From Lytechinus pictus (Eukaryota), in the NCBI RefSeq assembly GCF_037042905.1, contig NC_087251.1:744001-808000 (forward strand): 64,000 bases of DNA, given 5' to 3'. A program made the translations under genes and the position numbers. Shown here in pieces: positions 1-63,428 of this stretch. Position 1 is the stretch's first letter; each line of letters opens with the position of its first letter. Under the pieces are notes generated by a model, which was given only the letters and a program-made list of their open reading frames with translations, was not told the DNA's origin and made no database searches.

Positions 1-966
1 TGATTTTTTAATTTGACCAAGAAGAAATCCAGGCAAAGCTATTCATAATTGTGAAAAGTAATTATTTCAATTTGTTGTCATTTCTTTTAGGGATAACAAG
101 TACTTTTTACACTGACACAAGTATTTCACATAATCTAGGAGATGTTAAAGCATTTGTAGAGAAACATTATTCAAGTAAGAATGTGGAGCATATAAACAGA
201 ACATGGGTTTGGTTTCATAAAGCAGTTTAATACTGGTATAGAAACATGGCAATCCAAAATTCCATATGTAAATCTAGATTTAATCATTCCATTTTTATTG
301 AATTAGCTAGAAAAATATCATTTATGCAGATTAACATTCTTATTGAGCTCACAAAAATGACTCTTCCTCATCAAAAGCAAGAATAATTTTTTTTATTACA
401 ATATAATTGGGATCATTTGAAACCATCACAAGTTTTTTAATATCTGTAAAAAAAAATGACACATCATTTGGTATTTCTTATTCAAGTCATTCATAAAGTC
501 ATATGTAGACCCTTTTTTTAAACAGAGTCATTGCACACATTGAGAACAATTGTTGCAAAGGAGGTGAAATATGGCATTTCTATCGGTAAATATACATGCA
601 TATAGCTCAAAGAATAAAATAAAATTGAAGGACCAATGGATATTGGATATCTCTTTTATTTATTCATTGTATAATAAAGAGCAACACAGATAAATGCCTT
701 GCTCAAGGAATTGGTTCCCAAACTTTTGTGTGTTAACCAGGTGCCTTAGAACATCTTAGCCTCAGCACCAATAGATGGTAATAAATTAATTACTGTGTTA
801 TGTGATTAGACATCACCTTTAGAGTGTAGACTGTTCTTTGAATTCACATTCACATGAGCAAAGATACATCTATACCTGCTACCATCTAACAAATTTCAGC
901 TAAAGAATCATGGTGGATTAACTGTTTAAAGGTCTATCAATACCCATCTAATTCTGATATACTCAC

Positions 967-1215
967 TGATTGGTCTGCATTCATATGTAGCACAGCATGA
1001 TCCCGGCCTCCCATTACCAGCACTCATCTCATGATACTGGTAACCCTCAGCACAAACAACATCATGACACGCCCCCATGTCACATAAGCACTGAGGGGGG
1101 CGAGGGCAGCATTCACCTTCTTCCCGTTGAGCCTCTATCTTTAGACTATCTGGCGGACAATGGATATCAAAAACAATGTCGCAGCGTGCCTGAGAACAGT
1201 CTGCTGGAGTTGGCT
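967..1215 (-). CDS. CRIM1: Internal coding exon of a CRIM1-like (cysteine-rich motor neuron 1) gene
   Basis: On the minus strand, a pyrimidine-rich acceptor ttttgtcttccAG precedes 1215 and a donor GTGAGT follows 967. The exon is 249 bp, phase 1/1, with no stop: PTPADCSQARCDIVFDIHCPPDSLKIEAQREEGECCPRPPQCLCDMGACHDVVCAEGYQYHEMSAGNGRPGSCCATYECRPI. Cys spacing matches the vertebrate CRIM1 segment after the IGFBP domain as I recall it (DCSKARCEVQFSPRCPEDS...GECCPLPSRCVC...GKPGECCDLYECKP). Confidence 0.9.
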
Positions 1216-3396: not shown

Positions 3397-4295
3397 TAGC
3401 CTCTTGTCGAGGCCCTGTCGGCTGCTTTCCAAACGAACATGGCTAAGCAAGGGAGAGAGCGAAGCAGAGCGCTGCGAGACAGGGCCTCTAGACATCTGGG
3501 CTGAATTTCTTTTGTTTATTATTGTTTTTTTACCAATATTCCGACCAAGAACTGGTCGGTGAAAATCATCCAATGAGAGCGCGGGCCGCTATGACGTCAT
3601 ATTGAATATTCATGAGCTCATCTTGAATGGCGACCCGTGGATTCTTGGCGAAGAGTGACGACAAAATATGAAAGAGCATTGAATATGCCTCTAAAAATGC
3701 TGAATATTGACCGATTTAAGGATTTGCAATTCTATGAAATTAAATCTGCACTGACAGGACGAGATGTTTTGTAAATATACCCACAGGATATGGAAAAAAT
3801 GTAATATTTTTCAGCGATTCCACTATGCGTCGATTATCGATCTCCTCTGTGCAGTGAGGGATTAATGCTGGAGTGGAGCTTCCCCTTGACTCGAGTCTGA
3901 CCAGCGGCTGACCAGTATCTCCCAGGAAGTTTTGGGGTGGTGATGGGTCTGCATGTTACGGCCAGTACTATAGTAGTAGCAGTAGTATAGTACCACTACT
4001 TGTAGCATTTTGCTGGTTATATCCCCTTTAGTGTCCCGCAATTAAATGAATCCCCTGCAGAATAGTGGACTACTATAGTATTCCGAAACCCGGACGAAAC
4101 AGCTTTGACATTTCATTAGTTTACTAGGTGACCGGTAATATCATGACTCATGTATATTCATTAGGAAGACGTTCCTCGTGAATATATAATTCAGCTCATA
4201 TGTCAAGAGGCCCTGGCTCGCGCCAGGCCTAATTCGAATTAGGAAATCCCTCGCTTCGCTCGGGAAGCAGCCGCCAAGGCCTAGACAAGAGGCTA
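3397..4295 (+). mobile_element. Non-autonomous AcademH-type DNA transposon (899 bp)
   Basis: Imperfect TIRs of ~34 bp beginning TAGCCTCTTGTC. Exact 9-bp TSD GTAAGGCAC at 3388-3396 and 4296-4304. Contains an internal RecQ-type helicase remnant. Confidence 0.8.
3627..3837 (+). pseudogene. Frameshifted N-terminal fragment of a RecQ-like SF2 helicase
   Basis: Manual translation across frameshifts: VDSWRRVTTKYERALNMPLKMLNIDRFKDLQFYEIKSALTGRDV / VNIPTGYGKNVIF / AIPLCVDY. This fits RecQ motif 0 (F..Q) and Walker A motif I (GRDVxVxxPTGxGK). Confidence 0.8.
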
Positions 4296-5121
4296 GTAAG
4301 GCACGAGACTCAAGCTCGCTAGCTTAGCAGCTACCCACAGCGCCCATGCCCAAATACACGATTGGAAAGTAAGTTCCTGTATTTTGCCTTCACACTGCCA
4401 AAATACCTGTAACATTGGACCAAAATCCCCGCAAATTTTGTTGTCATTTATACAAGTACCTAGTATTTAGCAGGTAATTTCTTTTGGGGATATTACGTTA
4501 ATTTGCTTTCACATTGCCAAAATTACCTGGTATTTTCTGATGAGGGTAGATCAGGGAAAATTTCCCGATCAGAGAATACCTGGAACTTACGAACTTCGAG
4601 GCAGTCTGAATATGCCTAGAGACTAGAGAATATAGGTAGGCAGGTGTATGATAGGGAGTATCTTATAACAAACAACTATGCGTCTTGTCACTTCTCATCA
4701 CATCAACATTGTATTTACAGCTTCCAATTTACACTTTTCTTGTCTATTCTCTGCTATCTTGTTACCCCTCTGCTCCAATCTTAAAACGTCTACATTGAAT
4801 ATTAATCCAAAATAATTGTATTCAGGCAAGGATCCAAAATTAAATTTTAATTTCAATCGAAAGGAACTGTTATTTTAATTACTGGAGAGGGTCTGTTTGG
4901 TGTGATGGCATGAGGAATATTTTTTTCAGTTTTTCAAACAACTTTGCTGTGATGTGTTTGTAATTAAACCAAGATCTAAGTAAACTTGCGACCTTACAAG
5001 TAAAAGCTTACTTAGCAAGTAAAATTTCATGATTGTGTTTTCTTTTTATATTTTGAATATATGTATGTCATTGTAATTTGATTCATCCCTAAATTTTGGA
5101 CTTTGAACTATAGCAGTTATA

Positions 5122-8519: not shown

Positions 8520-9071
8520 CAGGGAGGGGTGGGGGGCCATTTACATTGACGAGTGGATACCATGCGCGACCAAAAAAACACTTAAAAAGGATGTCTTTTT
8601 CAAGATAGGGCATACGTAACGTAATAAGGGTGTCAAAAACACTTTGATACATGGTATCAACTCGTAAAAACACGTAAAAAGGATGTCTTTTTCAAGATAG
8701 GGCATACGTAACGTAATAAGGGTGTCAAAAACACTTTGATACATGGTATCCACTCGTAAAAACACGTAAAAAGGATGTCTTTTTCAAGATAGGGCATACG
8801 TAACGTAATAAGGGTGTCAAAAACACTTTGATACATGGTATCCACTCGTAAAAAACACGTAAAAAGGATATCTTTTTCAAGATAGGGCATATGTAACGTA
8901 ATAAGGGTGTCAAAAACACTTTGCGATGGTATAAAAACTTAAGACTAAATTGTTTTATAAATGTTGATGAGTGCATTTTCAGAATATGGAAAATACGTGT
9001 TTAGGGTGCTTTTCGAGACCCTATGGTTGCGCATGGTATCCACTCGTCAATGGAAGTGCCCCCCCCCCCCG
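8520..9071. mobile_element. MITE with poly-G/poly-C termini and 9-bp TSD (MULE-like by TSD length)
   Basis: TIR core cattgacgagtggataccatgcgc(g/a)acca at both ends. Exact TSD ATCCTCATC at 8511-8519 and 9072-9080. Confidence 0.85.
8573..8923. repeat. 92-bp tandem repeat (~3.8 units) inside the MITE
   Basis: ggat(g/a)tctttttcaagatagggcata starts at 8589, 8681, 8773 and 8866. Units are nearly identical. Confidence 0.95.
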
Positions 9072-9280
9072 ATCCTCATCTGTCTCACAATGTATTCTAA
9101 ACAAATTAAACTCAAGATGGGAAACATTAATCTGTCAAGATTGAAATCACATCAAGTTGAAATTCAATAGTGACTAAACCCTGTAATGTGTAATTAAGCA
9201 AATGTGAGAGGTTATCCTGAATGCAATCGAAAGGGTGATGAGCAGTTTATGAAGTAGGTGTAAAGAATCATTTACCTGTA

Positions 9281-9946
9281 TACCCCTTTCATATTGCGCT
9301 TTTCACCGGCGAAGTTCACCAGCGAAGGGGAAAGTGTCCAGTATGAAAGGTACACAGGAGAACTTCACCGGTGAAGTTCACCGGCGAACTTCTCCACCTC
9401 TAGAGGTGGAGAACTTCGCCGGCGAAACTGTTTCACCGGCGAAGTTCGCCGGTGAAAAGGCCAGTATGAAAGCAAACCGGAGAACTTCTCCTCTTTAATG
9501 ACGTCAGAGGTCAATTTTTTTCTCTCCCGAAGTCCCCTGTACCGAGATTCCGCGCGCAATAGTTGCAAGCTCAGCTGAATGCTATGGCCAAGTAGATACC
9601 CTCAATCATAATATTTTTTTACTAATAGTATTTATTAAAAAGCACTTTTTACATGTATAAAATGCGCTAAAATATAAACACAAGGTGATATTGTTTGTTT
9701 TTATTGTAATACTTCCAAAATATGTTGTAATTAATTTTTTTGATACCTTTTTGTAATAGGTAAAAAGTAATGTTTACAATATTCTTTTGTTTGTTGTGCA
9801 ATTGCCCGTTGACTTTCGCCGGGGAAGAAATGTCAGTGCGAAAGGGTACATTTTTTTCTTCGCCGGGGAAGTGAGGAATGCGAGGCGATGAAATTCGCCG
9901 GCGAAGTTCGCCGGTGAAAAATGAAGTGGGCAGTATGAAAGGGGTA
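9281..9946 (+). mobile_element. PIF/Harbinger-type MITE family I, copy 1
   Basis: TIR TACCCCTTTCATA, flanks gta/tta, many TTCRCCGGYGAA subterminal motifs. Closely similar copies at 13619 and 26198. Confidence 0.9.
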
Positions 9947-10483
9947 TTAGCACTATGAGGCGATTATTCTTTGATGTTAATAGGATGACAGACAATGGTG
10001 TTAAAAAATAAGTGTACCGCTGACTTCTGATCAGGGTACAATTTATTGTATTGACCACATCTAATGCACATCAATCATATATTTCAGAGCTGCTAAGTAC
10101 TCAAGAAAAAAACAGCTGGATCTAGGAAATTATCTTTCTCTACATTGCAATTGGACTAATCATTATTCATGGAGAAGGAAATCTCATGATCGGTCGGTTG
10201 TGATCGATGAGACAAAATTTTTTAGGAGATAGTGACCCTGAATATGAATTGATGGACATAACGTTTTAAATGAATATACCCATGTATATCTATGCTCTAA
10301 GCCTGTGTCTGAGCTGAGGTGTGAATAGTCTATCCTAACAATGATAGCAGACTGTACTATCCTAATGATGATAGCAGACTGTCCCCTCAGAAAACAGTCT
10401 AAACAAGGAGTCAATTGCACACAATCAAAGGAGGTAAACATTAAACAGGGAGAGGAAATAAGCCCAATATCTTGTTCTTGTTA

Positions 10484-12575: not shown

Positions 12576-13618
12576 TTATCAAAGGACTATAATATGTGCA
12601 TGGATTCTGTTAGCTGAACACTGAATCTTAGGTTGATCTTTTTAACCAATGTTTCTATCACTTTCTTCCAATGCTTGGTAACAAGGGAGAGCAAGGGATT
12701 TTCTTTCATGGTGAAGCCTAGAACTTGAAGCCTCTGATGAAAGGTACAATACCATAAAGGTTTACCCTTACTCTAGACTGTCATGAATGGGTGAAAATGA
12801 TTTATTTATGCTACAAAGAACAAGAGAGGAATGGTGAGAGTAATGTTCAAATGACAGGTGTAATTCCAAACTGTTATATTCCCATATTTTGATCCCATTA
12901 ATGTCAATGTCAGTATCAACAGTTACATCCAAGGTGATGACAATCCTCAAGATTACACCATGTTGACAATCTACATGCGCTGACCTACATCTTTTCTTTT
13001 TTTGCAACCAATACATCTTTCAGCATGATTAACCAAACATTTGAGATTAGTGGCAAACACCTTTCTATCTGGCACATACACAGAACATTCTAGCAAAATT
13101 GCAATCCCAACATAATATTGTTTTATTTGACATATTTCAATGCATAGTGGGGGAACGTGTAGGTAATTGTCTGGCCAAGGTCCAAGTCACCCTGTTGATA
13201 TGATTCTATTATTGCCCATAAAATCTCAAACATTCTTCAACCCCATCCTCCTTTTAAAAAAAAAATCAGTACCACATCATATATCATCCAATCTACTTGA
13301 ACTATTCCATGGCATGGATTCACAATATAATACCACAAACCTTTATACTAAAAATCAAGTGTACTACACCCACAAAAATACAAGTTCAATTATTGAAAGG
13401 AAATATAAGTGTCATTTTTATAATAGTAAGCCTACAATGAATATATTTTAATGTTGAAAAGATTGTTTCTTTTGTGATCAAGTATTAATCAGACAAAAGT
13501 GCCTCCAAAACTTACCCTTGCATGAAGTTAAAAAGCAAAGGAGTGCCAATAGCCTCCAGCGGTTATCAAAAAAACTGATTTATTTGTACAGGGTAATATC
13601 ATAAAAGAGTCACTTTTA

Positions 13619-14428
13619 TACCCCTTTCATATTGGGCTTTTCACCGGCGAACTTCACCGGCGAAGTTCGTCAGCGAAGGGGAAAGTGTCCAGTATGAAAG
13701 GTACACAGCAGAACTTCACCGGTGAAGTTCACCGGCGAACTTCTCCACCTCTAGAGGTGGAGAACTTCGCCGGCGAAACTGTTTCACCAGCGACGTTCGC
13801 CGGTGAAAAGGCCAGTATGAAAGCAAACCGGAGAACTTCTCCTCTTTAAACACGTCAGAGGTCAATTTTTTTCTCTCCCGAAGTCCCCTGTACCAAGATT
13901 CCGCGTGCGATAGTTGCAAGCTCAGCTGAATGCTATGGCCGAGTAGATATCCTCGAACATAATTTTATTTTTTACTAACAATATTTATTAAAAAGCACTT
14001 TTTACATGTATAAAATGCGCTAAAATAAAAAACAAAGTGATATTGTTTGTTTTTCTCGTAAAACTTCCAAAATATGTTGTAATTAATTTTTTGTATACCT
14101 TTTTGTAATAGGTAAGAAGTAATGTTTACAATTTTCTTTCGTTTGTTCTGCACGTGCCGAGCACTGACTAAATCAAGGGAATACTGACACTGTTTACTAG
14201 ATCTAGCCGTCATCTTGACAACTTTACTATAAGTTAGATCTCCACAATTAAAGGAAATAAATAATTGTGGTGCCGCGGAAATGCCGAATGGGGCCAATCG
14301 CCTGTGACTTTCGTCGGAGAAGAAATGTCAGTGCGAAAGGTACTTTTTTTTTCTTCGCCGGGGAAGTGAGGAATGCGAGGCAGAGAAGCTCGCCGCCGAA
14401 AAATGAAGAGGGCAGTATGAAAGGGGTA
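13619..14428 (+). mobile_element. PIF/Harbinger-type MITE family I, copy 2 (144 bp extra segment)
   Basis: TIR TACCCCTTTCATA and TSD TTA/TTA. Extra segment at 14153-14296 relative to the other two copies. Confidence 0.9.
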
Positions 14429-14714
14429 TTAGTACATGCCATGTCCGACCAGGAACTGTGGATATGGTCAGACCAAGTCATACCTCCTTGGTCTTACCAG
14501 CATTAGTGTGGCTAGCTGGTCTCTCTTGATGAATCCACCCTGGTCCCTTGAAAGAGATCACTTCCTCTTTCTATGCCATCATCACTAGCTAATTTTGGAA
14601 GGCGGCTGCTACCTGTATGGTATTACATCTGTCTGACCATAAGAGCATTTGGTGAGATATTCAATGACGGTGATACTTGGTACTCATCAAATCCTCCTGA
14701 ACTCCTTACACGCT

Positions 14715-14985
14715 CCAGGGCCCCAACTTACAAAGAGTTATGATTGATCCGACCAACCACAACTATGGAAAGTCAGCAACGCCAACATCTAAAACGTATG
14801 TTTGTTCACAATGATTTCTAGATATAATGTATAACTCTTCAAGTTTTCTTGATAATTTTGTGTGTTTTCTTTGTTTACAAAGGACATTGTGCAAATTTCC
14901 TGTACGAATAATTATGACAACGATGGATTTCCATATAGTTGAGGTTGATCAGATCAATCACAACGTTTTGTAAGATGGGGCCTAG
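14715..14985. mobile_element. Foldback MITE (~270 bp)
   Basis: Imperfect ~55-bp TIRs: ggccccaacttacaaagagttatgattgatc...caactatggaa / tccatatagttg...gatcaatcacaacgttttgtaagatggggcc. Confidence 0.75.
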
Positions 14986-15816
14986 AATTCACAAACTCAA
15001 TTCAACCTACAAAATCCTTCATCTCCATCTTTAAGAAGGAAAATAGACACTGCCTAACTGTGAGTAATTCACACAAGAACAGAAACCTAAATGGAAATAT
15101 TGAATTGCAATTTGAATATTTAAGCTTGTAAATGGGAGACAATATAAATGCATGATAGTGTTAGCAGGTTCTATTATCTCTGGCCCGAAGTAACATGTTA
15201 AATGATTCACATGATTTCACTCAGTGAATCAACAATTGCATCTCTGAATAGCTTCTCTGGACCAATACCCTTTAGAAATAAGTTGATAAAAGTTTTCACA
15301 TTTTGCATACACAAGCTGCAATGCATCTCAACAAACTATCACATTTTCACTTGTGTACAACTCATCAACACAAAGAAAGAAAATAATGGTGTTTGCGAAA
15401 AGCGAATGAAGGAAAGGTGCAAACATACTGCAGACATTTCTGGGGCACGATTACAGAAATCTAGTAGGTTTTTCTGAATGAGGATTGGAGCAGGTTGTCA
15501 CTATATATGTTCCATATGCTTGACCTAATAAACAGGAGCATATTTGCCTTTTTGTTGGACCAAGACAGAGTTGTGTTACATGTGGTTGATATGTGTGGAC
15601 TTGATGACAAGTCTTCAGGAATGGCTATTTTGAGGGTTAACATAATTTGAGACAACTTTTGGAATGTTAATAGCATGTCCACAACCAAAATATATTTTGT
15701 TCTCCAAATAATTGCCATAACACTTCTGCTGATGTGTTGTTGATACCAAATGTAGGTAAATATGGTAAGAAAAGAAACAGTAAAAAAATGAAGAACAGAT
15801 GGGACAAGTGTAAAAT

Positions 15817-16035
15817 AAAAGCATCTCAGTATTATCAGGATACAATCTTAAGAAAAGTATCTCAGTATTATCAGGATACAACCTTAAGAAAAGCATCTCC
15901 GTATTATCAGGATACAATCTTAAGAAAAGCATCTCAGTATTATCAGGATACAATCTTAAGAAAAGCATCTCAGTATTATCAGGATCATACAACCTTAAGA
16001 AAAAGCATCTCCGTATTACCAAGATTCAACCTTAA
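15817..16035. repeat. 36-bp satellite, left block (~6 units)
   Basis: Same unit as the main array, separated from it by the 16036-16618 insertion. Confidence 0.95.
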
Positions 16036-16618
16036 AGGAGAATGAAACCCTTGAAACCAGCTGAATCCATATCAAAGAGAAAAATCAAAGAAACATATTG
16101 TTGAAAGTTTGAGGAAGATTGAATGAATAATAAGAAAGTTATGAGCATTTGAATATTGAGATCACTAGTGCCATGTAGATCCTCCCATCGGCAATGCGAC
16201 CAAGATCTGTGATGCCACACACGTACAACTCCCTCATTACTTTAGTACTTATTTCACTTATATTCTCACTTTTATAGAGTCTATCACAAGGTGAGGTGTT
16301 CTCTTTATGAGATGACAAGTACACAGGTTTCACAACATTATATCATTGATGAATCGTTTGTCATATGATTAGAATGAGCAAAAAGAGATGTTTTGGGGTA
16401 TATTTTCAGTGTCCAAATGGGAGAGTTGTACGTGTGTGACATCACAGATCTTGGTCGCCTTGCCAATGGGAGGATCTCCATAGCATTAGTGATCTCGACA
16501 TTCAAATGCTCATAACTCTTTTATTCCTAGTCCTATTTTACTCAAACTTTTGTTGATCTTATTCTTTGATTTTTCTGCTTTCACAAAAGCTAACTTGCTC
16601 CAAGAGTTTCATTCTCCT
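16036..16618. mobile_element. Kolobok-type MITE (583 bp) inserted in the satellite
   Basis: TTAA TSD at 16032-16035 and 16619-16622. Termini AGGAGAATGAAAC...GTTTCATTCTCCT with ~200-bp imperfect TIRs. TTAA plus purine-purine termini fits Kolobok rather than piggyBac (CC termini). Confidence 0.85.
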
Positions 16619-19600
16619 TTAAGAAAAGCATCTCGGTATTATCAGGATACAACCTTAAGAAAAGCATCTCAGTATTATCAGGATACAACCTTAAGAAAAG
16701 CATCTCAGTATTATCAGGATACAACCTTAAGAAAAGCATCTCAGTATTATCAGGATACAACCTTAAGAAAAGCATCTCAGTATTATCAGGATACAACCTT
16801 AAGAAAAGCATCTCAGTATTATCAGGATACAACCTTAAGAAAAGCATCTCAGTATTATCAGGATACAATCTTAAGAAAAGCATCTCAGTATTATCAGGAT
16901 ACAACCTGAAGAAAAGCATCTCCGTATTATCAGGATACAATCTTAAGAAAAGCATCTCAGTATTATCAGGATACAATCTTAAGAAAAGCATCTCCGTATT
17001 ACCAAGATTCAACCTTAAGAAAAGCATCTCAGTATTATCAGGATACAACCTTAAGAAAAGCATCTCAGTATTATCAGGATTCAACCTTAAGAAAAGCATC
17101 TCAGTATTATCAGGATACAACCTTAAGAAAAGCATCTCCGTATTATCAGGATACAACCTTAAGAAAAGCATCTCAGTATTATCAGGATACAATCTTAAGA
17201 AAAGCATCTCAGTATTATCAGGATACAACCTTAAGAAAAGCATCTCAGTATTATCAGGATTCAACCTTAAGAAAAGCATCTCAGTATTATCAGGATACAA
17301 TCTTAAGAAAAGCATCTCAGTATTATCAGGATACAACCTGAAGAAAAGCATCTCAGTATTATCAGGAAACAACCTTAAGAAAAGCATCTCCGTATTATCA
17401 GGATACAACCTTAAGACAAGCATCTCCGTATTATCAGGATACAACCTTAAGAAAAGCATCTCAGTATTATCAGGATACAACCTTAAGAAAAGTATCTCAG
17501 TATAATCAGGATACAACCTTAAGAAAAGCATCTCAGTATTATCAGGATACAACCTGAAGAAAAGCATCTCAGTATTATCAGGATACAACCTGAAGAAAAG
17601 CATCTCAGTATTATCAGGATACAACCTTAAGAAAAGCATCTCCGTATTATCAGGATTCAACCTTAAGAAAAGCATCTCCGTATTATCAGGATTCAACCTT
17701 AAGAAAAGCATCTCCGTATTATCAGGATACAACCTTAAGAAAAGCATCTCAGTATTATCAGGATACAACCTTAAGAAAAGCATCTCCGTATTATCAGGAT
17801 ACAACCTTAAGAAAAGCATCTCCGTATTATCAGGATTCAACCTTAAGAAAAGCATCTCCGTATTATCAGGATTCAACCTTAAGAAAAGCATCTCAGTATT
17901 ATCAGGATACAATCTTAAGAAAAGCATCTCAGTATTATCAGGATACAACCTTAAGAAAAGCATCTCAGTATTATCAGGATACAACCTTAAGAAAAGCATC
18001 TCCGTATTATCAGGATACAACCTTAAGAAAAGCATCTCAGTATTATCAGGATTCAACCTTAAGAAAAGCATCTCCGTATTATCAGGATTCAACCTTAAGA
18101 AAAGCATCTCCGTATTATCAGGATTCAACCTTAAGAAAAGCATCTCCGTATTATCAGAATACAACCTTAAGAAAAGCATCTCCGTATTATCAGGATACAA
18201 CCTTAAGAAAAGCATCTCAGTAATATCAGGATACAGCCTTAAGAAAAGCATCTCAGTATTATCAGGATTCAACCTTAAGAAAAGCATCTCCGTATTATCA
18301 GGATACAACCTTAAGAAAAGCATCTCCGTATTATCAGGATTCAACCTTAAGAAAAGCATCTCAGTATTATCAGGATACAACCTTAAGAAAAGCATCTCCG
18401 TATTATCAGGATACAACCTTAAGAAAAGCATCTCCGTATTATCAGGATACAACCTTAAGAAAAGCATCTCAGTATTATCAGGATACAACCTTAAGAAAAG
18501 CATCTCAGTATTATCAGGATACAACCTTAAGAAAAGCATCTCAGTATTATCAGGATACAGCCTTAAGAAAAGCATCTCAGTATTATCAGGATACAGCCTT
18601 AAGAAAAGCATCTCAGTATTATCAGGATACAACCTTAAGAAAAGCATCTCCGTATTATCAGGATACAACCTTAAGAAAAGCATCTTCGTATTATCAGGAT
18701 ACAACCTTAAGAAAAGCATCTCAGTATTATCAGGATACAACCTTAAGAAAAGCATCTCAGTATTATCAGGATACAGCCTTAAGAAAAGCATCTCAGTATT
18801 ATCAGGATACAGTCTTAAGAAAAGCATCTCAGTATTATCAGGATACAGCCTTAAGAAAAGCATCTCAGTATTATCAGGATACAACCTTAAGAAAAGCATC
18901 TCCGTATTATCAGGTACAACCTTAAGAAAAGCATCTCAGTATTATCAGGATACAACCTTAAGAAAAGCATCTCAGTATTATCAGGATACAACCTTAAGAA
19001 AAGCATCTCAGTATTATCAGGATACAACCTTAAGAAAAGCATCTCAGTATTATCAGGATACAACCTTAAGAAAAGCATCTCAGTATTATCAGGATACAAC
19101 CTTAAGAAAAGCATCTCAGTATTATCAGGATTCAACCTTAAGAAAAGCATCTCCGTATTATCAGGATTCAACCTTAAGAAAAGCATCTCAGTATTATCAG
19201 GATTCAATCTTAAGAAAAGCATCTCAGTATTATCAGGATACAACCTTAAGAAAAGCATCTCCGTATTATCAGGATTCAACCTTAAGAAAAGCATCTCCGT
19301 ATTATCAGGATTCAACCTTAAGAAAAGCATCTCCGTATTATCAGGATACAACCTTAAGAAAAGCATCTCAGTATTATCAGGATACAACCTTAAGAAAAGC
19401 ATCTCAGTATTATCAGGATACAACCTTAAGAAAAGCATCTCAGTATTATCAGGATTCAACCTTAAGAAAAGCATCTCCATATTATCAGGATACAACCTTA
19501 AGAAAAGCATCTCAGTATTATCAGGATACAACCTTAAGAAAAGCATCTCAGTATTATCAGGATACAACCTTAAGAAAAGCATCTCAGTATTATCAGGATA

Positions 19601-21810
19601 CAACCTTAAGAAAAGCATCTCAGTATTATCAGGATACAACCTTAAGAAAAGCATCTCAGTATTATCAGGATTCAACCTTAAGAAAAGCATCTCAGTATTA
19701 TCAGGATTCAACCTTGAGAAAAGCATCTCCATATTATCAGGATACAACCTTGAGAAAAGCATCTCCGTATTATCAGGATTCAACCTTAAGAAAAGCATCT
19801 CAGTATTATCAGGATTCAACCTTAAGAAAAGCATCTCAGTATTATCAGGATTCAACCTTAAGAAAAGCATCTCAGTATTATCAGGATACAACCTTAAGAA
19901 AAGCATCTCAGTATTATCAGGATACAATCTTAAGAAAAGCATCTCCGTATTATCAGGATACAACCTTAAGAAAAGCATCTCCGTATTATCAGGATACAAC
20001 CTTAAGAAAAGCATCTCAGTATTATCAGGATACAGCCTTAAGAAAAGCATCTCAGTATTATCAGGATTCAACCTTAAGAAAAGCATCTCAGTATTATCAG
20101 GATACAACCTTAAGAAAAGCATCTCCGTATTATCAGGATACAACCTTAAGAAAAGCATCTCAGTATTATCAGGATACAATCTTAAGAAAAGCATCTCAGT
20201 ATTATCAGGATACAATCTTAAGAAAAGCATCTCAGTATTATCAGGATACAGCCTTAAGAAAAGCATCTCAGTATTATCAGGATTCAACCTTAAGAAAAGC
20301 ATCTCCGTATTATCAGGATACAACCTTAAGAAAAGCATCTCAGTATTATCAGGATACAACCTTAAGAAAAGCATCTCAGTATTATCAGGTTACAACCTTA
20401 AGAAAAGCATCTCCGTATTATCAGGATTCAACCTTAAGAAAAGCATCTCAGTATTATCAGGATACAACCTTAAGAAAAGCATCTCAGTATATTATCAGGA
20501 TACAACCTTAAGAAAAGCATCTCAGTATTATCAGGATACAACCTTAAGAAAAGCATCTCAGTATTATCAGGATACAACCTTAAGAAAAGCATCTCAGTAT
20601 TATCAGGATTCAACCTTAAGAAAAGCATCTCAGTATTATCAGGATTCAACCTTAAGAAAAGCATCTCCGTATTATCAGGATACAACCTTGAGAAAAGCAT
20701 CTCCGTATTATCAGGATTCAACCTTAAGAAAAGCATCTCAGTATCATCAGGATTCAACCTTAAGAAAAGCATCTCCGTATTATCAGGATACAACCTTAAG
20801 AAAAGCATCTCCGTATCATCAGGATACAACCTTAAGAAAAGCATCTCCGTATTATCAGGATACAACCTTAAGAAAAGCATCTCAGTATTATCAGGATTCA
20901 ACCTTAAGAAAAGCATCTCAGTATTATCAGGATTCAACCTTAAGAAAAGCATCTCAGTATTATCAGGATTCAACCTTAAGAAAAGCATCTCAGTATTATC
21001 AGGATACAACCTTAAGAAAAGCATCTCAGTATTATCAGGATTCAACCTTAAGAAAAGCATCTCAGTATTATCAGGATTCAACCTTAAGAAAAGCATCTCC
21101 GTATTATCAGGATACAATCTTAAGAAAAGCATCTCAGTATTATCAGGATTCAACCTTAAGAAAAGCATCTCAGTATTATCAGGATTCAACCTTAAGAAAA
21201 GCATCTCAGTATTATCAGGATACAATCTTAAGAAAAGCATCTCCGTATTATCAGGATACAACCTTAAGAAAAGCATCTCAGTATTATCAGGATACAATCT
21301 TAAGAAAAGCATCTCCGTATTACCAAGATTCAACCTTAAGAAAAGCATCTCAGTATTATCAGGATACAACCTTAAGAAAAGCATCTCAGTATTATCAGGA
21401 TACAACCTTAAGAAAAGCATCTCAGTATTATCAGGATTCAACCTTAAGAAAAGCATCTCCGTATTATCAGGATACAATCTTAAGAAAAGCATCTCCGTAT
21501 TATCAGGATACAACCTTAAGAAAAGCATCTCCGTATTACCAAGATTCAACCTTAAGAAAAGCATCTCAGTATTATCAGGATCATACAACCTTAAGAAAAG
21601 CATCTCTGTATTATCAGGATACAACCTTAAGAAAAGCATCTCCGTATTACCAAGATTCAACCTTAAGAAAAGCATCTCAGTATTATTAGGATACAACCTT
21701 AAGAAAAGCATCTCCGTATTATCAGGATACAACCTTAAGAAAAGCATCTCCGTATTATCAGGATACAACCTTAAGAAAAGCATCTCGGTATTATCAGGAT
21801 TCAACCTTAA
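16619..21810. repeat. 36-bp tandem satellite/minisatellite, ~144 units, consensus AAGAAAAGCATCTCAGTATTATCAGGATACAACCTT
   Basis: Direct reading shows register repeating every 180 bp (5 units). A few recurrent substitutions, and indels near 18914 (-1), 20489 (+2) and 21581 (+3). A 12-bp remnant ttaagaaaagca resumes at 23442. Confidence 0.98.
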
Positions 21811-23441
21811 AGTTGAATTAAGAAGAAGGTGAGTTTCCATAAATATGGGTTCCACACACAATATATAGTATATATCAGTTGTTCAAACAGATAGCATGTC
21901 ACAAAAATCCTCTGCCTTCTCGATATTTTGCTTTGAAAGTCTATGAAATTAGCCACCTGTCAGAGCCCGAGAGACAAGTGTACAGAAAAATCACTTTGAG
22001 TGTGACGTCATCGGGGGGGGGGGGGGGGAATATAGTATAAGAGGTGTCCGGGTGTAATACAGAAATGCTATGCAGAAAGACAAAGATGATTTTACAATTT
22101 TTTTTCAAAGCAACTCAAATCAAACAAATAGGAATCATATGTACAAATCTTTACTTTCCCTGTATAAAAAACATTATGAATAACTATCATGAACTCTTAA
22201 ATCATGATGTAAGATTGCAAACAGTGAGTTATTGAATGAAATTTTCACTATTTCTCATTTATTTTATCACGATGTTCCATCAAGTGAGTAGCTGGAAAGT
22301 AATTCTGGCGGCTAGCTCAGCTCTGCGCGCGCTGCACGCCTATACAATACACACAACACCCAGGCATTGAGTGTACTGTAGTGGTCTGGTACTTCGACCC
22401 GCAGTTCATGACCATGCAGCGATCCCCTGGCGTCTTTTTCTTCTTTCCTTTTGTCTTTGACTCCATTTTTATATCCTCTGGATCATTTCCACTCATAGCT
22501 CATTCCACAGAACAATCTAGAATCAAACGTACAATTCTTCTCGGCCTTCCGAGTTGTTTTCTATATTTAATTACGCTAGAGGTCATCGTCACACATACAA
22601 ACGCAATTCGCAAGTGATTTGAAGACAGCAAGAAAGGTATGCGGTATGGTAGCTCGACAGCTAGCTGAGCCGCAGCGGGCGGCCGGTCGGCACAAAGCAA
22701 TTCCGCAACCTACTGTGTTTTTTGCAAGAGCCGCGTCACACGCAGATAAATATGTCATAATAACACGTCTGCTACGTTATCGACCGGTGAGAAGATCTCG
22801 ATCAAATTTCATATTATTCGCCTTGAAATTATTCCTTTAGGGTCTATGGTATCATTCTGAGGGAATTTACATATTTGGAATAATAGTACGGCCATAAATA
22901 TACTTTTAATCATTTCCTCTTTGCAAGTTCTCCGGCTCACAGATACAACTTCAACTGCAGTTTATTCCATTATGACTTGTTCTGCCACGGACACAGTCCC
23001 GAACGAAAACAAGGCATTAAAATCGTCTAAAATCGCTACAAAGAAGAACAGTTTTAACAATGTAGGGATATATTATTGACTATATGTCTTTGAATAATTA
23101 TTACTTCCTTTCAGTATCGTTCACATAAAATCAATAGCGATAAAATTAAGTTTTGACACAAAAGTAAATATGAAGGCGTACGTGCATAGTACACAAAACG
23201 GCACTGCCTTGTTTACTACACCGGGACCGAATTCCCACCGTGACGTCACAGTCAAAGAACACCCGTCTCGGTAGGCATTGCAGGAGCCAACTCAGGGAAA
23301 ATGGGTAGGGATAAATCGTTCAAATCCACTATTTTGAAAAAAGAAAATGGGGGGTCGAATCACCTCTTAGTGTTTGGGGGGTTGTAAGGTTGCTATTAAT
23401 GTAAATATCTCAATATTTGGAATCGTCTTCTTAATTCAACT
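21811..23441 (-). mobile_element. Internally deleted Kolobok-type transposon (1631 bp)
   Basis: 16-bp perfect TIR AGTTGAATTAAGAAGA. TTAA TSD at 21807-21810 and 23442-23445. Contains a THAP-like ORF start. Confidence 0.85.
22317..22496 (-). pseudogene. Truncated THAP-domain N-terminus (transposase remnant)
   Basis: 59-aa ORF MSGNDPEDIKMESKTKGKKKKTPGDRCMVMNCGSKYQTTTVHSMPGCCVYCIGVQRAQS. CxVxxC...HxxP resembles the THAP start. The later conserved Trp and CxxH are missing. Confidence 0.6.
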
Positions 23442-23787
23442 TTAAGAAAAGCAAAACAGAAATCAGAATTCCAGTGGAAGATTATTTGGCAAAAGTGATG
23501 CACAGAGTACGTAAGGAGAATAATTGCTCTGCATTGAATACGAATTCATATACCAAAGTCAATACATGATCTATATTCTTCACTTCATTTCATACTACCT
23601 AAAGAAGTACTGCGCAAGCCAAGTTCACATTCAAACTATAACGTTGACAAGAGAAGTTGCTTTCTCAAACCCATTTATACATGCTTTCAACTCCATTTTT
23701 TCTCGAAATATAGAATAATTTTCACTTTAAGTACTTCCACGAGAAATATTTTTAAAGTTCCTTTATTCAACCATCTATCAGTCAATA

Positions 23788-23912: not shown

Positions 23913-26197
23913 TCATCTACCCCCCCCCCAAAAAAAAAAAAAGAGGGAGAACTTTGATCGAACTTGTCATTATTACCATTACTTACCACATACGGCATCA
24001 TCCCTTCATAAGATCAAATATGGCAGTTGACATGCGACTCACATGTATTTCATAATGTCACTTAGCATCATTGTACTACTCTATGCTGCGCATCGCATTG
24101 CGTTCATTGTTGTACGCATTGTATATTTCACGCATTTGTGCATGCGCACTAGACTATTGAATATGGTGTCATATTCAACAGCAATCTGCGACGTTACTAC
24201 TACTACTACTGATGCTGCTGCTGCTTCTTATGATCGTGAGAAGGGTGAGGGTGACTCCCACCAACCCATCGACCTCCAAAATACTGCACAGGAATTGATG
24301 CACACCAAGATACGCGTTTTTAATGCTTCGCTAAAACGCTCTATATAGATGATAATATTTTATCTCTATTAATGTCTGTTAAAAGAAATTATTCACATTT
24401 CTAAAAAAAATCCATTAGGCCTCATCATCCATCTATAACACTAAAAGGATGAATTGATAAATTGAAATGAGAGATAAGCATTAAGAAATAAAATGCATGA
24501 AACCATGACACAAAACTGTAATGACTGATCATATTTTATTGGCTTACAATATGATCTGGAACTGATTGGTTAAATTTTAAACTCAATAAATGAATTTAAC
24601 AGGAATGCTCAATTTATAACATATCTTGCTTAACATTTTATCATTGTTGTTAGAAGTTGAAAACTCCCTTTAATCTCTTAAAGAACAATGGCAAGTTCAT
24701 ATACATGTATATGTATTAGAACAGGGCTTACAAAATTCATACTTTTTTAATTTTGTTTTTACTATGTACAGTCAATAGTGGGCATCAATATTCTTATATG
24801 TCGCTGGGCACAGATCTCAATAGTACAAAGTGAAAGTTGAATTTGTGCTTCAAATACAAATTGACCCTAAGATTATACACTAATTAGTCCTTCCTTGGTT
24901 TTATTAAAAAATAAACATATGACTGGACAGCAAGGAAGATCATTAGAGGCTACCAATCTATCTCCACAATGTACAAAAGTGCATTTCTATTCCTGGGACC
25001 TTCATCACAAAGCTTGGCAATTGATGTTAGAGATGATTAGTACAAAAGATTGAACACAGATGATCTATGGAATCAATCACAGAAATCAGCCTTGTGATCA
25101 AACTATAAACTTTGTTTCAGGAGACCTTGATCATTAAGATGCTCTACCTCATGCAAGCCTCATCTTTAATCCTCTCCAATTAACTTCCCATACAAGCAGG
25201 ATTGGGAATTATGTTTTGATATTAGACAAGGTATCACCTGTATGAAAACCATGTGATCATCTGGTGGAGCTATCTGACGGTGAGTAATCGCAATAGATAA
25301 GCTCTTTACAAGGGAAGAGATATTAGTCGTTGGATTAATTACACTTAAAAGGTCATCTTGGAGTAGCAAAACACACTTTGTTTTACTTTTTGTACATTTG
25401 ATTAGATCTTCAGATGAAGGCACATTAAGAATCTTAATTGTCTGCTACAGAAATCAATCAATCAAATGAACAATTTGTCTTATGGTATATCTTGAACAAT
25501 ATTGATAATTAAAACAACATTTGTAATTAAGTATAAATCATTAATGAGTTAATTACTGAACTGACTTGATCTAATTTCTAATGTGTCAATACACATGTAT
25601 CATACATTGATTTTTATTTGAAAATATCCAAAGTGAGCAAAGACACAAATATCAACTTTTTTCAAGGAAACATAAGGTTTTTAATCTTAATCCAATGAAT
25701 AATGAACTATGAAGTTATCTGTCCCTGTAACTGTCAATCATTATTGTAGTTATCTGTGATTTGTCATGCTGAGACAGACATCATAAACATACAATAATAG
25801 ATAAACCAGATATGGACTACTTGCTCTCTGTCTGACACTATTCCTTGAATGCATTCTGTATCGGTGGTACTTGGTACTAGTTACATGTATGCAATAAGCT
25901 TTAGTAGATAGTTCAGTACAAAAATTGTTTGGGTCTTACAATGAAGCCTATCTATTTCGAAAGAAAAAAAAATCACATTTTTTGTAAATGCTTAAAAAAA
26001 CCTAATGTATTTTGGCTGTGTTTTTACACTAATACACATTTAGAATATTATCAATGATGATAATGACAATCACAATCAAATCCTCTTTCCGCAATCATGT
26101 TTTCAAACTTGAATGACTGCCCCCCCCCCCCCTTTTATAACATCTCCTATCCCCTTCTCATCCACCATAATCCTCAATAGTCTCCTCTACTCTCTTA

Positions 26198-26785
26198 TAC
26201 CCCTTTCATACTACCCTCTTCATTTTTCACCGGCGAACTTCTCCGCCTCGCATTCCTCACTTCCCCGGCGAAGAAAAACATGTACCCTTTCGCACTGACA
26301 TTTCTTCCCCGGCGAAAGTCAACGGGCGATTGCAGAACAAACGAAAGAAAATTGTAAACATTACTTCTTACCTATTACAAAAAGGTATCAAAAAAATTAA
26401 TTACAACATATTTTGGAAGTATTACGATAAAACAAACAATATCACCTTGTTTTTATATTTTAGCGCATTTTATACATATAAAAAGTGCTTTTTAATAAAT
26501 ATTGTTAGTAAAAAAAAAAAAATGTTCGAGGGTATCTACTTGGCCATATAGCGTTCAGCTGAGCTTGCAACTATCGCGCGCGGAATCTCGGTACAGGGAA
26601 CTTCGGGAGAGAAAAAAATTGACCTCTGACGTCATTAAAGAGGAGAAGTTCTCCGGTTTGCTTTCATACTGGCCTTTTCACCGGCGAACTTCACCGGTGA
26701 AGTTCTCCTGTGTACCTTTCATACTGGACACTTTCCCCCTTCGCTGGCGAACTTCGCCGGTGAAAAGCGCAATATGAAAGGGGTC
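26198..26785 (-). mobile_element. PIF/Harbinger-type MITE family I, copy 3 (inverted, internal deletions)
   Basis: Reverse complement of 9281-9946 with TSD TTA/TTA. Lacks the TCTAGA-centred hairpin. Confidence 0.9.
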
Positions 26786-28921
26786 TTACAACCCCTAATA
26801 TTTCTCCTCATGTTATCTCCCTTCCCCTCTCTACCAGCCACCCCCCCCCCCCCTTCTCCATCCACTTAAAGCCCAATAAACCATTCTCCTTCATACACAT
26901 TTCCTTTTCATGCATTCACTACTGTATCTTTCATACATTTCTCCCATGTCTCCAATTAGAAATCTTTCATCTTCCTCCTGCCAGAAGTTCATCAAATCTC
27001 TCACTATGTATATCCACATTCACTGCCAAGCTGTCCACCCTAGTACTCATTATCTCATAACAGTTTCTAATAGGTTTGCATTGTCAATCATCATTATCAC
27101 AGCAAACCAACATTCTGCACATCATCTGTAGTGTCTGCCTGGTATGTATCTCTGGGTTCAGACTGTTGCCCAAGGGGAGGGGACAAGCTCTAATCTGTGT
27201 ACGATCCACCATTTACATCTGTCTCCAAGGCTTGGACACAGACTCTTAAGTCTAAACTGTGCAGATAATATGCAGATTATGTTTATGAGGGTCGCATGGT
27301 GCTAAAACATGACTAAATGGTAGGACCATGGACCTGGGAAGAAATCACACATGCAAATTTCAATTAAAAAAACATCTTTGCCCAACTGATTAACCCTATG
27401 ATAGGCAACTCTTTCATCCAAATTTCATTGCTGAGACCTTCAATCAGGGGCTTTCAGACTAGATGATTGGTAGACGAAGAGGCATGGGATATTCTCCTCC
27501 TATTGGATAATAGTGTGAACCCTAAGAATGACAGGGATGTTCTCATAGCAGCATGGCATTCATAGCAGATAAGATCTACATACTCATCTCACAATAAGAG
27601 CAATCAATCACTGATGAGTATTTCCCAATACTGTGTATGGACAGTGACCTGTCACACTGTTCATTTAGGCATTTAAAATCTTGAAGGTCAAAAGCCTGAA
27701 GGATGGACTACAAGAACTGTAAAAATAATTTGTGAACCAGACTGCAATCAACATCATTATTTATTGAATTTAAGAAAGAAATTGATGATTGATTGTAATT
27801 TTATCAACATGATATAATATATTCCTTCAACTACATTTAACTGTTTTTGTACAAAATTTATGGTTGGTGATATTTCTCTTTTCTATTTTGACAACACACA
27901 ACAGTCATGATACATCATTCTGTCTACTCCACTTTGTTCATTCTAGTCATGGTTAATATGATATTTACAAAATTTATGCTTGCTGCTAAATACAAGATTC
28001 TATCCAATACACTTGTTTGTCTGAATCACAGACATATGCAGCATTTGGGGTGTTTCTTTCACCTTCCTTAAAAACTTACATGTACATGAGTTTTGATTTA
28101 TGCATAAAATGTTGGCTCAGCAAAATGCAGTGCATTCCTTTATTTTACATTATTTTATAACCTACAATTTAAGAAACTGTGCGAGGGTTAAAGATCACAG
28201 CACAGCAGTTACCGGGATATTTCATAGGTCAAAGGACAAGCCTATCCTGCACATGACATTGTTCGCGTTCATATCACAACGTTATCAAATGCCAATATTG
28301 ACTATTGACTCGACAGACTGTTTGACTACTTGGCAAACCAAAATATTGTTATCAAACTACTTATGTAAAATAAAACTTTTTTTTTCGCATTTCCCTCAAA
28401 TCAACTCTTCCCTAGATGCTAGAGCAGATCCAATTTCTATAAAACTCCATCACTTCATGGTGAACAAATCCAACAAATATGGGGAAATTGACAGAATAGG
28501 ATTTATGAGAAGAGGTAATAAAGAGGTACAAGCAAGGCCAACCAAAATCACAAATGTAATAATTCTTTTTTTTTAATGGTTCCACTGGAATTCATTTAAA
28601 AGATCTTCATATTTGTTTACCATTTTCAACTCTTTCCAGTTTCTACTAAAAAAATACTGAGGATATGAAGGTGTTCTATACAGTGTCAAAATATGATATA
28701 AAATAAAATGATTGGCACATCAATACAATGCACTTCTATATAGGAAAATTTTACAAACGCTTCTGCTTATAAACATACACAAATTTTGTTTTTTATCAGG
28801 TAATCTAAAGATTTACCAATTTTATTTCAATTTTGATAAAACTTTCCCTTTAGACAGCGATCGGTACTCAATACTTCTAAACCTTTATTGCCGTCATATA
28901 CCATGATTTGTGACTGAGATT

Positions 28922-50899: not shown

Positions 50900-51146
50900 A
50901 ATAATAATAATAAATAATAATGTTTTATTTACCCAGGGTAGCCACTTCAGTTAGGAAACTGCTCTACCAGCGGGCCCTGCATAACATAATAATGTTATTA
51001 TTACCCTTCTCCAATCTAAATGCTTGAGCGCCTAGCAAGAAGGCAGAAGATCCCATTTTTGTAAGTCTTTGGTATGACTCGGCCGAGGAGCGAACCCACG
51101 ACCTCCCATTCGCGAGGCGGGTGCTCTACCACTGAGCCACCATGAC
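50900..51146 (-). mobile_element. Full-length tRNA-derived SINE (~247 bp)
   Basis: On the minus strand: A-box TGGCTCAGTGG, B-box GGTTCGCTCC, a non-tRNA body, AATAAA and an (ATT)n tail. Confidence 0.9.
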
Positions 51147-51213: not shown

Positions 51214-53095
51214 AGGAGAACTATATTGAAAATCGTAAAAATTGAGAATCATATATCAAATCAAAGGAGAAAATAAGGAGAACACGATGGTGTACATCAT
51301 TTATCATGGAGACCGATGGAACTCAGTTAATTGATAGTTTAAAGTTTTCTCTCTGAATGCTTCAAACACGCAGAATTACGTCCGCGAAATTGGGGATTTT
51401 TTATGACGTCACTTTCTGTACGAGAGGTGTGATTGGCTCTCCCACGTGAAGCTCCACTTGCATGCAAAACCTGTTGCGAGGGTACGTTTTCTCCACATTG
51501 TCACTGAATACTTCGATCACGAAATGAAAGATAACCCAGAATTTTATCTAGATTTGGATTTTCAAATTGATGATTTTGAAGATGAAGAGAATGATGATGA
51601 AGTGAACAACAAAGTGACGTAGTTGGGGGTAAATTGGGGGAATCGATGATGATGAGTCGGACAATTCAACTTGCAACACGATCACATGCCGATTCGCTAC
51701 CAACTCATGCAGCTGCTAAGTTCTAGCTACACCGCGCGTGCCAAATTGAATTCACGAAAATGACTTACCACACTGTCCAGACAGAGTCTCTTACTTCTGT
51801 GACTATGAAGAAGGAAAATAATGATAAAACTGTACTTACAAATAAGTGAATGTAATCCGAACCTGAAGGCAAATCAACTCAACGAATAGCAGCAGACGAT
51901 ATGCACCGATGATAAACTTCATGTGGCTGGGATAGATTGTCACTCGTTCTGTTAGATGTAATTTTTATCTCATTAATTTGACAAAATTACGAAACTCGGG
52001 GAATTATTTATCTATATAAAAATATAGTAACATCTCGTATAATTTTTAAATTACGATAAAACGTTTTTTGAAGGAAAACGTTGAGGGAAATTAAATTTAG
52101 ATGTAAAAGATCCCCAACATGCGTAGCTTGATTGAGAGCTGTGCAACACGTGCATAGATCTACTCTCTCAGCCAAGGCGAGAAAGCGATATGGCATGTTT
52201 GTGATTTTGATTACGATCACATATACGAGCTTTTAAAAGGTTTTATCGTAATTTAAAAAATAATACGAGATGGTACTATATTTTTATATAGATAAATAAT
52301 TCCCCGAGTTTCGTAATTTTGTCAAATTAATGAGATAAAAATTACATCTGACAGAACGAGTGACAATCTATCCCAGCCACATGAAGTTTATCATCGGTGC
52401 ATATCGTCTGCTGCTATTCGTTGAGTTGATTTGCCTTCAGGTTCGGATTACATTCACTTGTTTGTAAGTACAGTTTTATCATTATTTTCCTTCTTCATAG
52501 TCACAGAGGTAAGAGACTCTGTCTGGACAGTGTGGTAATTCATTTTCATGAATTCGATTTGGCAAGTGCGGTGTAGCTAGCACTTAGCAGCTGCATGAGT
52601 AAGGTAGCGAATCGGCATGTGATCGTGTTGCAAGTTGAATTGTCCGACTCATCATCATCGGCGTAATTCCCCCAATTTACCTCCAACTACGTCACTTTGT
52701 TGTTCATTTCATCATCATTCTCTTCATCTTCAAAATCATCAATTTGAAAATCCAAATCTAGATAAAATTCTGGGTTTTCTTTCATTTCGTGATCGAAGTA
52801 TTCAGTGACAGTGTGGAGAAAACGTACACTCGCAACAGGTTTTGCATGCAAGTGGAGCTTCACATGGGAGAGCCAATCACGCATCTCGTACAGAAAGTGA
52901 CGTCATCAAATTCAAGTCAATTCAGAGACCGATGCGAGGCATATTTCGGAGAGGCATTTTGAGCGTTTTTTAATCGGCGATTTTCACCTTATGTATTATT
53001 TTCGTTATTTTTGAATGACCCACTGATAATCCCCACATCATTACCTTTCCATTGACATATAATAAGACCTCATTCATAATCAATATAGTTCTCCT
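51214..53095. mobile_element. Kolobok-type non-autonomous element (1882 bp) with large internal foldback
   Basis: 16-bp perfect TIR AGGAGAACTATATTGA. TTAA TSD at 51210-51213 and 53096-53099. Confidence 0.88.
51403..52906. repeat. Long inverted repeat: ~665-bp arms (51403-52067, 52235-52906), ~170-bp spacer
   Basis: The arms read as reverse complements with only scattered substitutions and small indels. Confidence 0.95.
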
Positions 53096-58516: not shown

Positions 58517-59089
58517 AGGTCAAGTCCACCCCATAAAAAATTGATTTGAATCAATAGAAAATCAAACAATAATGTTGAAAATTTTATCAAAATCGGATGT
58601 AAAATAAGAAAGTTATGACATTTTAAAGTTTCGCTTATTTTTCACAAAACAGTTATAAACACAACTCAGTGATATGCAAATAAGAGAGTTGATGATGTCA
58701 CTCACTATTTAGTATGTTTTTTTAAATTGTATTATACAATATTTCAATTTTCACACATTTTGGCAATAAGATCCCTCTTGGTTGAACCACAAAATGTTCA
58801 AACAAAGGTAATTCCACATGTTCAGGGAGAAATAAAGCCTTGTTTCTCATAAAGAGAAAATTGAAATATTTCATATAACATACAAAATAAATAGTGAGTG
58901 ACATCATCAGTCACCTCATTTGCATACCGACCAGGATGTGCATATAACTGTTTTGTGAAATTAAGCAAAACTTTAAAATGTCATAACTTTCTTATAATAC
59001 ATCCGATTTTGATGAAATTTTCAGTGTTATGCTTGCTTGATTTATCTCTTTTTATTTAAAATTTTTTTTGTTGGGGTGGACTTTAACCT
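58517..59089. mobile_element. Kolobok-type MITE (573 bp)
   Basis: TTAA flanks at 58513-58516 and 59090-59093. Termini aggtcaagtccacccc / ggggtggactttaacct with ~200-bp imperfect TIRs. Confidence 0.85.
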
Positions 59090-63261: not shown

Positions 63262-63428
63262 AGGGGAAGTTCACCCTGACAAAAATTTTATTGTAAATAT
63301 AGCAACAACAAAAATTAATTTTGGTGAAGGTTTCAGGAAAATCCGTCAAATATTTAAAAAAGTTTTTTTTTTGTGACGTCATGAAGAAGAGCAGCCCCAA
63401 TTATGTTGTGTAATATAAAATGCATAAC
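63262..63428 (+). mobile_element. Left-terminal fragment of a Kolobok-type MITE
   Basis: TTAA then AGGGGAAGTTCACCC, similar in style to the 58517 terminus. Includes TGACGTCA at 63374. No right end. Confidence 0.5.

Follow-up and report, generated by a model that had tools for sequence, protein, structure and literature searches.

Within a window of 64,000 nucleotides from Lytechinus pictus (contig NC_087251.1, positions 744,001 to 808,000; all positions below are those of the window), a tandem array of a 36-bp unit is interrupted by two transposable elements, here termed E1 and E2 (Table 1). The unit occurs 150 times in total, split into blocks of 6 and 144 by interruptions after unit 6 and after unit 150, and the 8-bp stub GAAAAGCA closes the array to the right of E2. 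In line with a preliminary description of this DNA, ccTTAAg is found in nearly every unit (125 of 150, with TTAA alone in 143), and the two elements, which differ from each other, each sit in the TTAA of a unit between duplicated target sites. That description also placed one element about six units from the left edge and the other at the last unit, with a clean centre, and this arrangement is borne out: units 7-149 are free of any inserted element, and behind both E1 and E2 the repeat register picks up again with GAAAAGCA. In place of 'satellite', the array is better called a single-locus minisatellite: all 149 pattern matches of the unit within the window fall inside it.

A protein-coding tandem repeat was considered and rejected: three frames of the consensus unit are open, but stops and −1/+2 indels break them. 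An ATG within the end of E2 starts a 456-codon frame that runs through the repeat (20470-21840, minus strand), on the same strand as a CRIM1-like gene; we take this frame as a by-product of the open unit frame. No function is indicated for the array.

Table 1. Positions of the array, its insertions and the neighbouring exon in the window
Feature	Positions	Strand	Remark
Left minisatellite block, units 1-6	15817-16035	+	unit 6 ends in the TTAA that E1 duplicated
Left AAAAGCA copy of the bounding 7-bp direct repeat	15817-15823	+	
TTAA target-site duplication left of E1	16032-16035		
E1, non-coding T2-type MITE, Kolobok superfamily, 583 bp	16036-16618		
TTAA target-site duplication right of E1	16619-16622		
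Main block, units 7-150	16623-21810	+	units counted from 16624
Old-variant shoulders of main block, units 7-17 and units 131-150	16624-17019; 21089-21810		homogenised core between
TTAA target-site duplication left of E2	21807-21810		
E2, internally deleted Kolobok element, 1631 bp	21811-23441	-	
First 36 codons of THAP-DDE transposase gene in E2	22359-22466	-	
TTAA target-site duplication right of E2	23442-23445		
Terminal stub GAAAAGCA	23446-23453	+	last letter of unit 150 and right copy of the 7-bp direct repeat
Internal exon of CRIM1-like gene	967-1215	-	AG..GT borders read from sequence

A single unit in the sister species

Contigs of four public runs (X1, X2, X8 and X21) of 21 were aligned to positions 14440-16660, which comprise the left flank, the left block and E1. 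Runs X1 and X2 are two samples of a sister species (organism A), whose flank is 96-97% identical to that of the window (28 differences in 854 letters and 48 in 1137, respectively, plus gaps). The orthologous contigs of both samples align to 15857 only, that is over one unit plus AAAAG. The remaining 389 and 229 letters find no alignment, and over 15865-16014 the depth is zero. These letters are to be placed on the array side, given that X1 records 2 and 3 overlap by 30 letters at 15004-15033. A second unit would have lengthened the match, and an insertion at the TTAA would have stopped it at 15851; the contigs thus contain one unit with an empty site. As read from these contigs, both samples of the sister species show one unit, an empty TTAA and no array. 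The unit is presumably joined directly to the right flank, to which the unaligned letters would then correspond. This comparison with a related species, which the preliminary description had called for, indicates that the array and its insertions are lineage-specific and that the array is indeed young.

Run X21 differs from the window at 6 of 912 flank letters and probably represents the same species. Its flank contig ends 30 letters into the repeat and its unit contig has a depth of 55.7, versus 3.7-4.8 for the flank; an array is present in this sample. Contigs of X8 do not cover the unique flank and have no bearing on the locus.

Direct repeats of 7 bp (AAAAGCA, at 15817 and 23447) stand at the two borders of the array, and its terminal unit is incomplete. 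Models of minisatellite birth between direct repeats of 5-10 bp (Haber and Louis 1998, Taylor and Breden 2000) are summarised in PMC3389668. The locus resembles these models in having an array between short direct repeats, an incomplete last unit and one unit in the outgroup. As a point of difference, the left repeat is not the same in the sister species at one of seven letters, its second (15818; A in the window, C in X1 and X2), and the original microhomology may have been 5-6 bp. A change at 15818 may have lengthened the microhomology before the first duplication. Under such a model, the single 36-bp stretch between the short direct repeats would have been duplicated after the split from the sister species and would have grown to 150 units by unequal exchange or slippage.

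Two non-autonomous Kolobok elements

In PMC9587614, Kolobok elements are described as duplicating TTAA and, in contrast to piggyBac, as having the ends 5'-RR..YY-3'. Both E1 and E2 are flanked by a TTAA target-site duplication, the empty TTAA being present in other units and in the sister species, and both have 5'-RR and YY-3' termini with terminal inverted repeats. E2 furthermore shows homology to a THAP-DDE transposase, as judged by a sequence match. Elements of the piggyBac superfamily also duplicate TTAA, with ends that start with C. Membership of that superfamily was rejected for E1 and E2, both of which begin with AG. The two elements are unrelated in sequence, and a reading as a composite KolobokP element, in which long terminal direct repeats enclose an internal region, was likewise rejected, since elements that differ are not the paired ends of one element.

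E2 has the ends AGTTG..CAACT and terminal inverted repeats of 16 bp that match at 16 of 16 positions. Of the 36 residues encoded by its transposase codons, 32 are the same as at the N-terminus of P0003, a Lytechinus variegatus protein of 786 residues. This protein has a THAP domain above the cut-off and a weak MULE match below it, and DxxH and H2CH-like motifs were read in it by eye. The rest of P0003 finds no convincing match in E2, the next best one (E = 8e-4 in a search of E2 alone) lying upstream and out of order. Judged by its sequence, E2 is a deletion derivative of an autonomous Kolobok element from which most of the transposase gene has gone. It resembles the Kolobok transposons with a THAP-DDE transposase in PMC9587614 and PMC6004289 in its TTAA duplication, 5'-AG..CT-3' ends, 16-bp repeats and THAP gene start; unlike full Kolobok transposons it lacks the rest of the gene, and it is placed at the level of the superfamily, above lineages such as Kol0, E and P. 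Within the window E2 matches nothing else. A Pfam search yielded no family for seven open reading frames of the window and none for five of E2. When metagenomes were scanned with the E2 end, two loci were returned, with only 21-22 matching terminal letters, no second end and no inner similarity.

E1 has the ends AGGAG..CTCCT, with 13 of 14 terminal letters matching as an inverted repeat and TTAA on both sides. Its inverted arms measure 203 bp and are 79% alike, and it folds into a strong long hairpin (z = −15.9). A terminal AGGRR motif is characteristic of T2-type MITEs (miniature transposable elements with inverted repeats) in PMC6004289. E1 combines this motif with a TTAA target, no coding capacity and multiple copies, and is a high-copy T2-type MITE, that is a non-autonomous Kolobok element. 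With the Xenopus Xmix/T2-A1 elements of the same paper it has in common the TTAA target, the AGGRR end, long inverted arms, the non-coding nature and the high copy number. Unlike those Xenopus elements, the E1 family is from a sea urchin. No published account of the locus or of the E1 and E2 families was found in the paper listings searched; Repbase or Dfam may hold both families.

Three high-depth contigs of X8 differ from E1 at 1 of 133, 1 of 81 and 2 of 163 letters (4 of 377 in total, 1.1%; confidence interval (CI) 0.3-2.7), while five other X8 pieces among the matches listed are more distant from E1 or situated in another repeat. The three contigs appear to be close to the consensus of the E1 family; if they are taken as such, the mismatch between the arms of E1 is inherited and E1 itself is young.

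Both insertions are preceded by the context GATTCAACC-TTAA, as had been pointed out before. The shared context is real, but not significant: the same 9 bp upstream occur in 41 of 150 units, all along the array, and the chance that both insertions share them is about 0.08. A preference of Kolobok elements for this context, or for array edges, would account for the coincidence. In sample X2, however, 110 contigs of the E1 family continue into unrelated letters exactly behind 16622, and their flanks have no consensus (agreement 0.36), so that nothing points to a preference for this 36-bp unit; for KolobokP, a different lineage, PMC9587614 reports that target preference is not strong. We consider such a preference highly improbable.

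Several further observations concern E1 and other elements of the window. Relative to the single-copy flank, the middle of E1 (16240-16389) has a depth about 3,500-4,300 times as high in X21 and about 20-40 times as high in organism A. Its relative depth is thus roughly 100 times higher in X21, the arms being abundant in both; contig depth is a rough hint and not a copy number, and the difference hints at a lineage-specific burst of an E1 subfamily. E1 matches only itself and one distant MITE in the window, an older palindromic T2-type element at 58517-59089, and a lone similar end lies at 63262. Another element, at 51214-53095, is likewise flanked by TTAA and combines AGGAG ends with 16-bp terminal repeats that are perfect and with inner inverted arms of 676 bp, 95.7% alike.

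Insertions and old variants at the array ends

If insertion were uniform over the 143 TTAA sites, finding both elements 6 units or less from an edge would have P = 0.0065, and summed edge distances of 7 or less would have P = 0.0038, the edge-distance criterion having been picked after the data were seen. Such edge positions are unlikely for an array of constant length, and an explanation is therefore needed from its history. Beyond E2 on the right, a unit is represented by no more than 8 bp, so that no expansion was possible there.

The distribution of unit variants bears on this history. A four-change variant occurs at units 6, 17, 137, 143 and 146, a 3-bp insertion at units 5 and 144, G12 at units 7 and 150, and C12+T30 at units 3, 15, 131 and 141, whereas none of these four rare variants is found in units 18-130. 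Each of the 10 rare-variant units in the main block is 20 units or less from an end (P = 5e-6 by permutation, with non-independent markers chosen once the units had been inspected). In the core, other variants form local clusters, namely G29, G33 (units 14-33), G34, A13 and C17. Neighbouring units share G29 more often than expected (P = 0.005), while sharing of the common variants C12 (P = 0.06), T26 (P = 0.08) and T30 (P = 0.45) is at chance level. Singletons, which are young, are present all along the array (13 in 5400 letters, 0.24%; CI 0.13-0.41), two of them being the shared 3-bp insertion. Given a divergence of 1.1% versus 0.24%, E1 is probably older than most present units.

These variants also speak to the quality of the assembly. 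No read or contig spanning the array was seen among the contigs of the four runs, and the X21 unit contig has, as a rough figure, only 12-15 times the flank depth, as might be expected if the array length or the clean centre were an assembly artefact. Unlike a falsely duplicated block, however, the array has no repeated string of unit types longer than 5, which is not above shuffles. Its 25 kinds of variant occur in local clusters, and the flank contig of X21 breaks off exactly 30 letters inside the repeat, which is what a genuine repeat would bring about. An artefact thus seems exceedingly improbable.

The rare variants extend up to 11 units inside E1 (units 7, 15 and 17) and up to 20 units inside E2 (units 131-150), which places the ends of the homogenised core well within both elements. 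This observation does not support the earlier proposal, in which the elements delimit the domain being amplified. The left block moreover has rare variants in common with the far right end, across E1, and the rare-variant order of units 3-7 returns in units 141-150 with extra units, E1 being absent from the second copy. On the simplest reading, nearly the whole of a short array was duplicated early and growth then took place between the copies. On the same reading, this duplication would have preceded the arrival of E1 or involved exchange with an allele lacking E1.

Insertions and rare variants at the ends of a homogenised centre are the picture expected of accretion. For Drosophila satellite arrays, Khost et al. 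2017 (PMC5411766) describe a centre that is homogenised and ends at which insertions cluster and rare variants occur, together with one repeat cluster present in duplicate on either side; they refer to McAllister and Werren 1999 for the accretion model. Such edge accretion is typical according to McGurk and Barbash 2018 (PMC5932611). The present locus would work in the same way in miniature, with two insertions in a 5.4-kb single-locus minisatellite compared with a 100-kb pericentromeric satellite. Unlike in the Drosophila arrays, the pre-array state of one unit is seen here, in the sister species.

To follow passive markers, an array was simulated that grows from 2 to 150 units by block duplication and deletion and carries neutral markers without effect on exchange (11 settings of 4000-5000 runs each). 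With small steps, 17-19% of the single-copy markers ended up no more than 6 units from an edge; when some or many steps were large, 26-74% did so, compared with 8% under uniformity. For markers older than a fifth of the array age this proportion was 44-100%. Passive markers thus reach the edges in simulation, so that survivor bias alone yields the pattern and no barrier is needed, which also speaks against the elements as borders.

We therefore regard it as probable that the locus is a lineage-specific minisatellite in which two passive Kolobok insertions were left at the ends by normal repeat turnover. The TTAA of each unit would have served as target of Kolobok transposase, and two unrelated non-autonomous elements would have inserted independently. 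Exchange would duplicate or delete central units faster than terminal ones, and older single-copy marks would thereby end up, or survive, at the array ends. The suggested order of events is a short array, the near-whole duplication, the insertions at a much shorter length than the present one, and growth of the core. Of the two possibilities raised initially, insertion into a short array and loss of central insertions by unequal exchange, both are reasonable as two ends of an accretion process.

Several results weigh against this interpretation. In the small-step settings, which match the singletons best, the array counted 30 units or fewer at the birth of only 7-13% of edge markers, and two markers of any age were both at an edge with a probability of about 0.03. 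Given the insertion occupancy of the rest of the window (2-4 elements per 427 TTAA), two insertions have P = 0.002-0.009 in an array of 15 sites and P = 0.15-0.39 in one of 143 sites. Together with the small-step results, this makes 'while short' no more than a possible timing: the elements may have met a short array or one that had already grown long. Variants common to both ends only were obtained in 0.3-1.4% of runs for one marker and in at most 0.22% for three, which shows that the simple model misses part of the history. The left block would have stayed at 6 units with P ≤ 0.006 under proportional unit-by-unit growth, in a test that ignores edge geometry, and the intervals of the E1 divergence and the singleton rate nearly touch.

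The small left block could also be explained if E1 acted as a partial barrier. Interruptions stabilise tandem arrays, and the 583-bp hairpin, with its strong fold, might break the pairing register, so that the left 6 units stop while the longer right tract runs away; E2, beyond which there is no unit, would be irrelevant. The block still counts 6 units, at the low probability given above. Old variants, on the other hand, go on for 11 units to the right of E1, and the 20-unit shoulder of the right end looks equally old with no element on its inner side; edge freezing, moreover, occurs in the simulations without any barrier. A barrier of this kind appears unlikely to us.

A more active part would fall to the elements if transposase cuts at the ends of E1 or E2 had caused the expansion, slipping repair synthesis adding units between them. 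The ends of both elements are intact, the E1 family appears mobile in this lineage from the rough depth comparison of X21 with organism A, and passive turnover poorly reproduces the variants common to both ends. Growth, however, is centred away from the elements, the units beside E1 and E2 look old, and no excision footprint was seen among the units. Because units are joined through the letter that follows TTAA, and at the right end this letter is found on the far side of E2, two or more units were in place before E2 arrived, and the array predates it. Expansion driven by the elements is accordingly very unlikely. A somewhat less remote variant, still decidedly doubtful, is that the elements are not passive in that E1 insulates the left block while transposase cuts drove growth from about 10 to 150 units by slipping repair. 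If true, the locus would exemplify, in nature and with a date, how a cut-and-paste transposon builds an intronic minisatellite, with the growth falling within a few percent of divergence from the sister species.

With passive accretion as the preferred reading, the significance of the locus is modest, the pattern being the known accretion of insertions at array ends. It nevertheless offers a tidy test or teaching case, in which the pre-array state is visible, two insertions can be dated and variants record one early near-whole duplication.

Genomic setting

The exon of the CRIM1-like gene (Table 1) has matches in CRIM1-like proteins from two sea urchins (71% across 97% of the query and 97% across 43%) and begins at a splice acceptor. 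A search of the window for CRIM1 exons further upstream (residues 1-162 of P0001) was negative (best E = 4). Since the exon opens with an acceptor and the preceding part of the protein could not be located in the window, the array is probably situated within a long CRIM1 intron upstream of this exon. No such exon turned up in the remaining 62 kb, which suggests a very long intron. The exon had no match among PDB sequences and no usable match in the protein atlas.

Other repeats were noted in the surroundings. A search of Rfam returned one weak tRNA match at 51075-51146 on the minus strand (30.7 bits, cut-off 29), about 70 bp to the left of the element at 51214-53095; the match is perhaps a tRNA-derived repeat. 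The left flank of the array contains a very high-copy repeat at 14665-15039, located at the same place in the sister species by contig cover. Three copies of one dispersed repeat with inner inverted segments, about 91-93% alike, lie at 9279-9950, 13617-14435 and 26194-26788. Finally, 47-bp inverted ends (89%) surround a 92-bp tandem repeat of 3.8 copies at 8526-9070, a small element with an array of its own.

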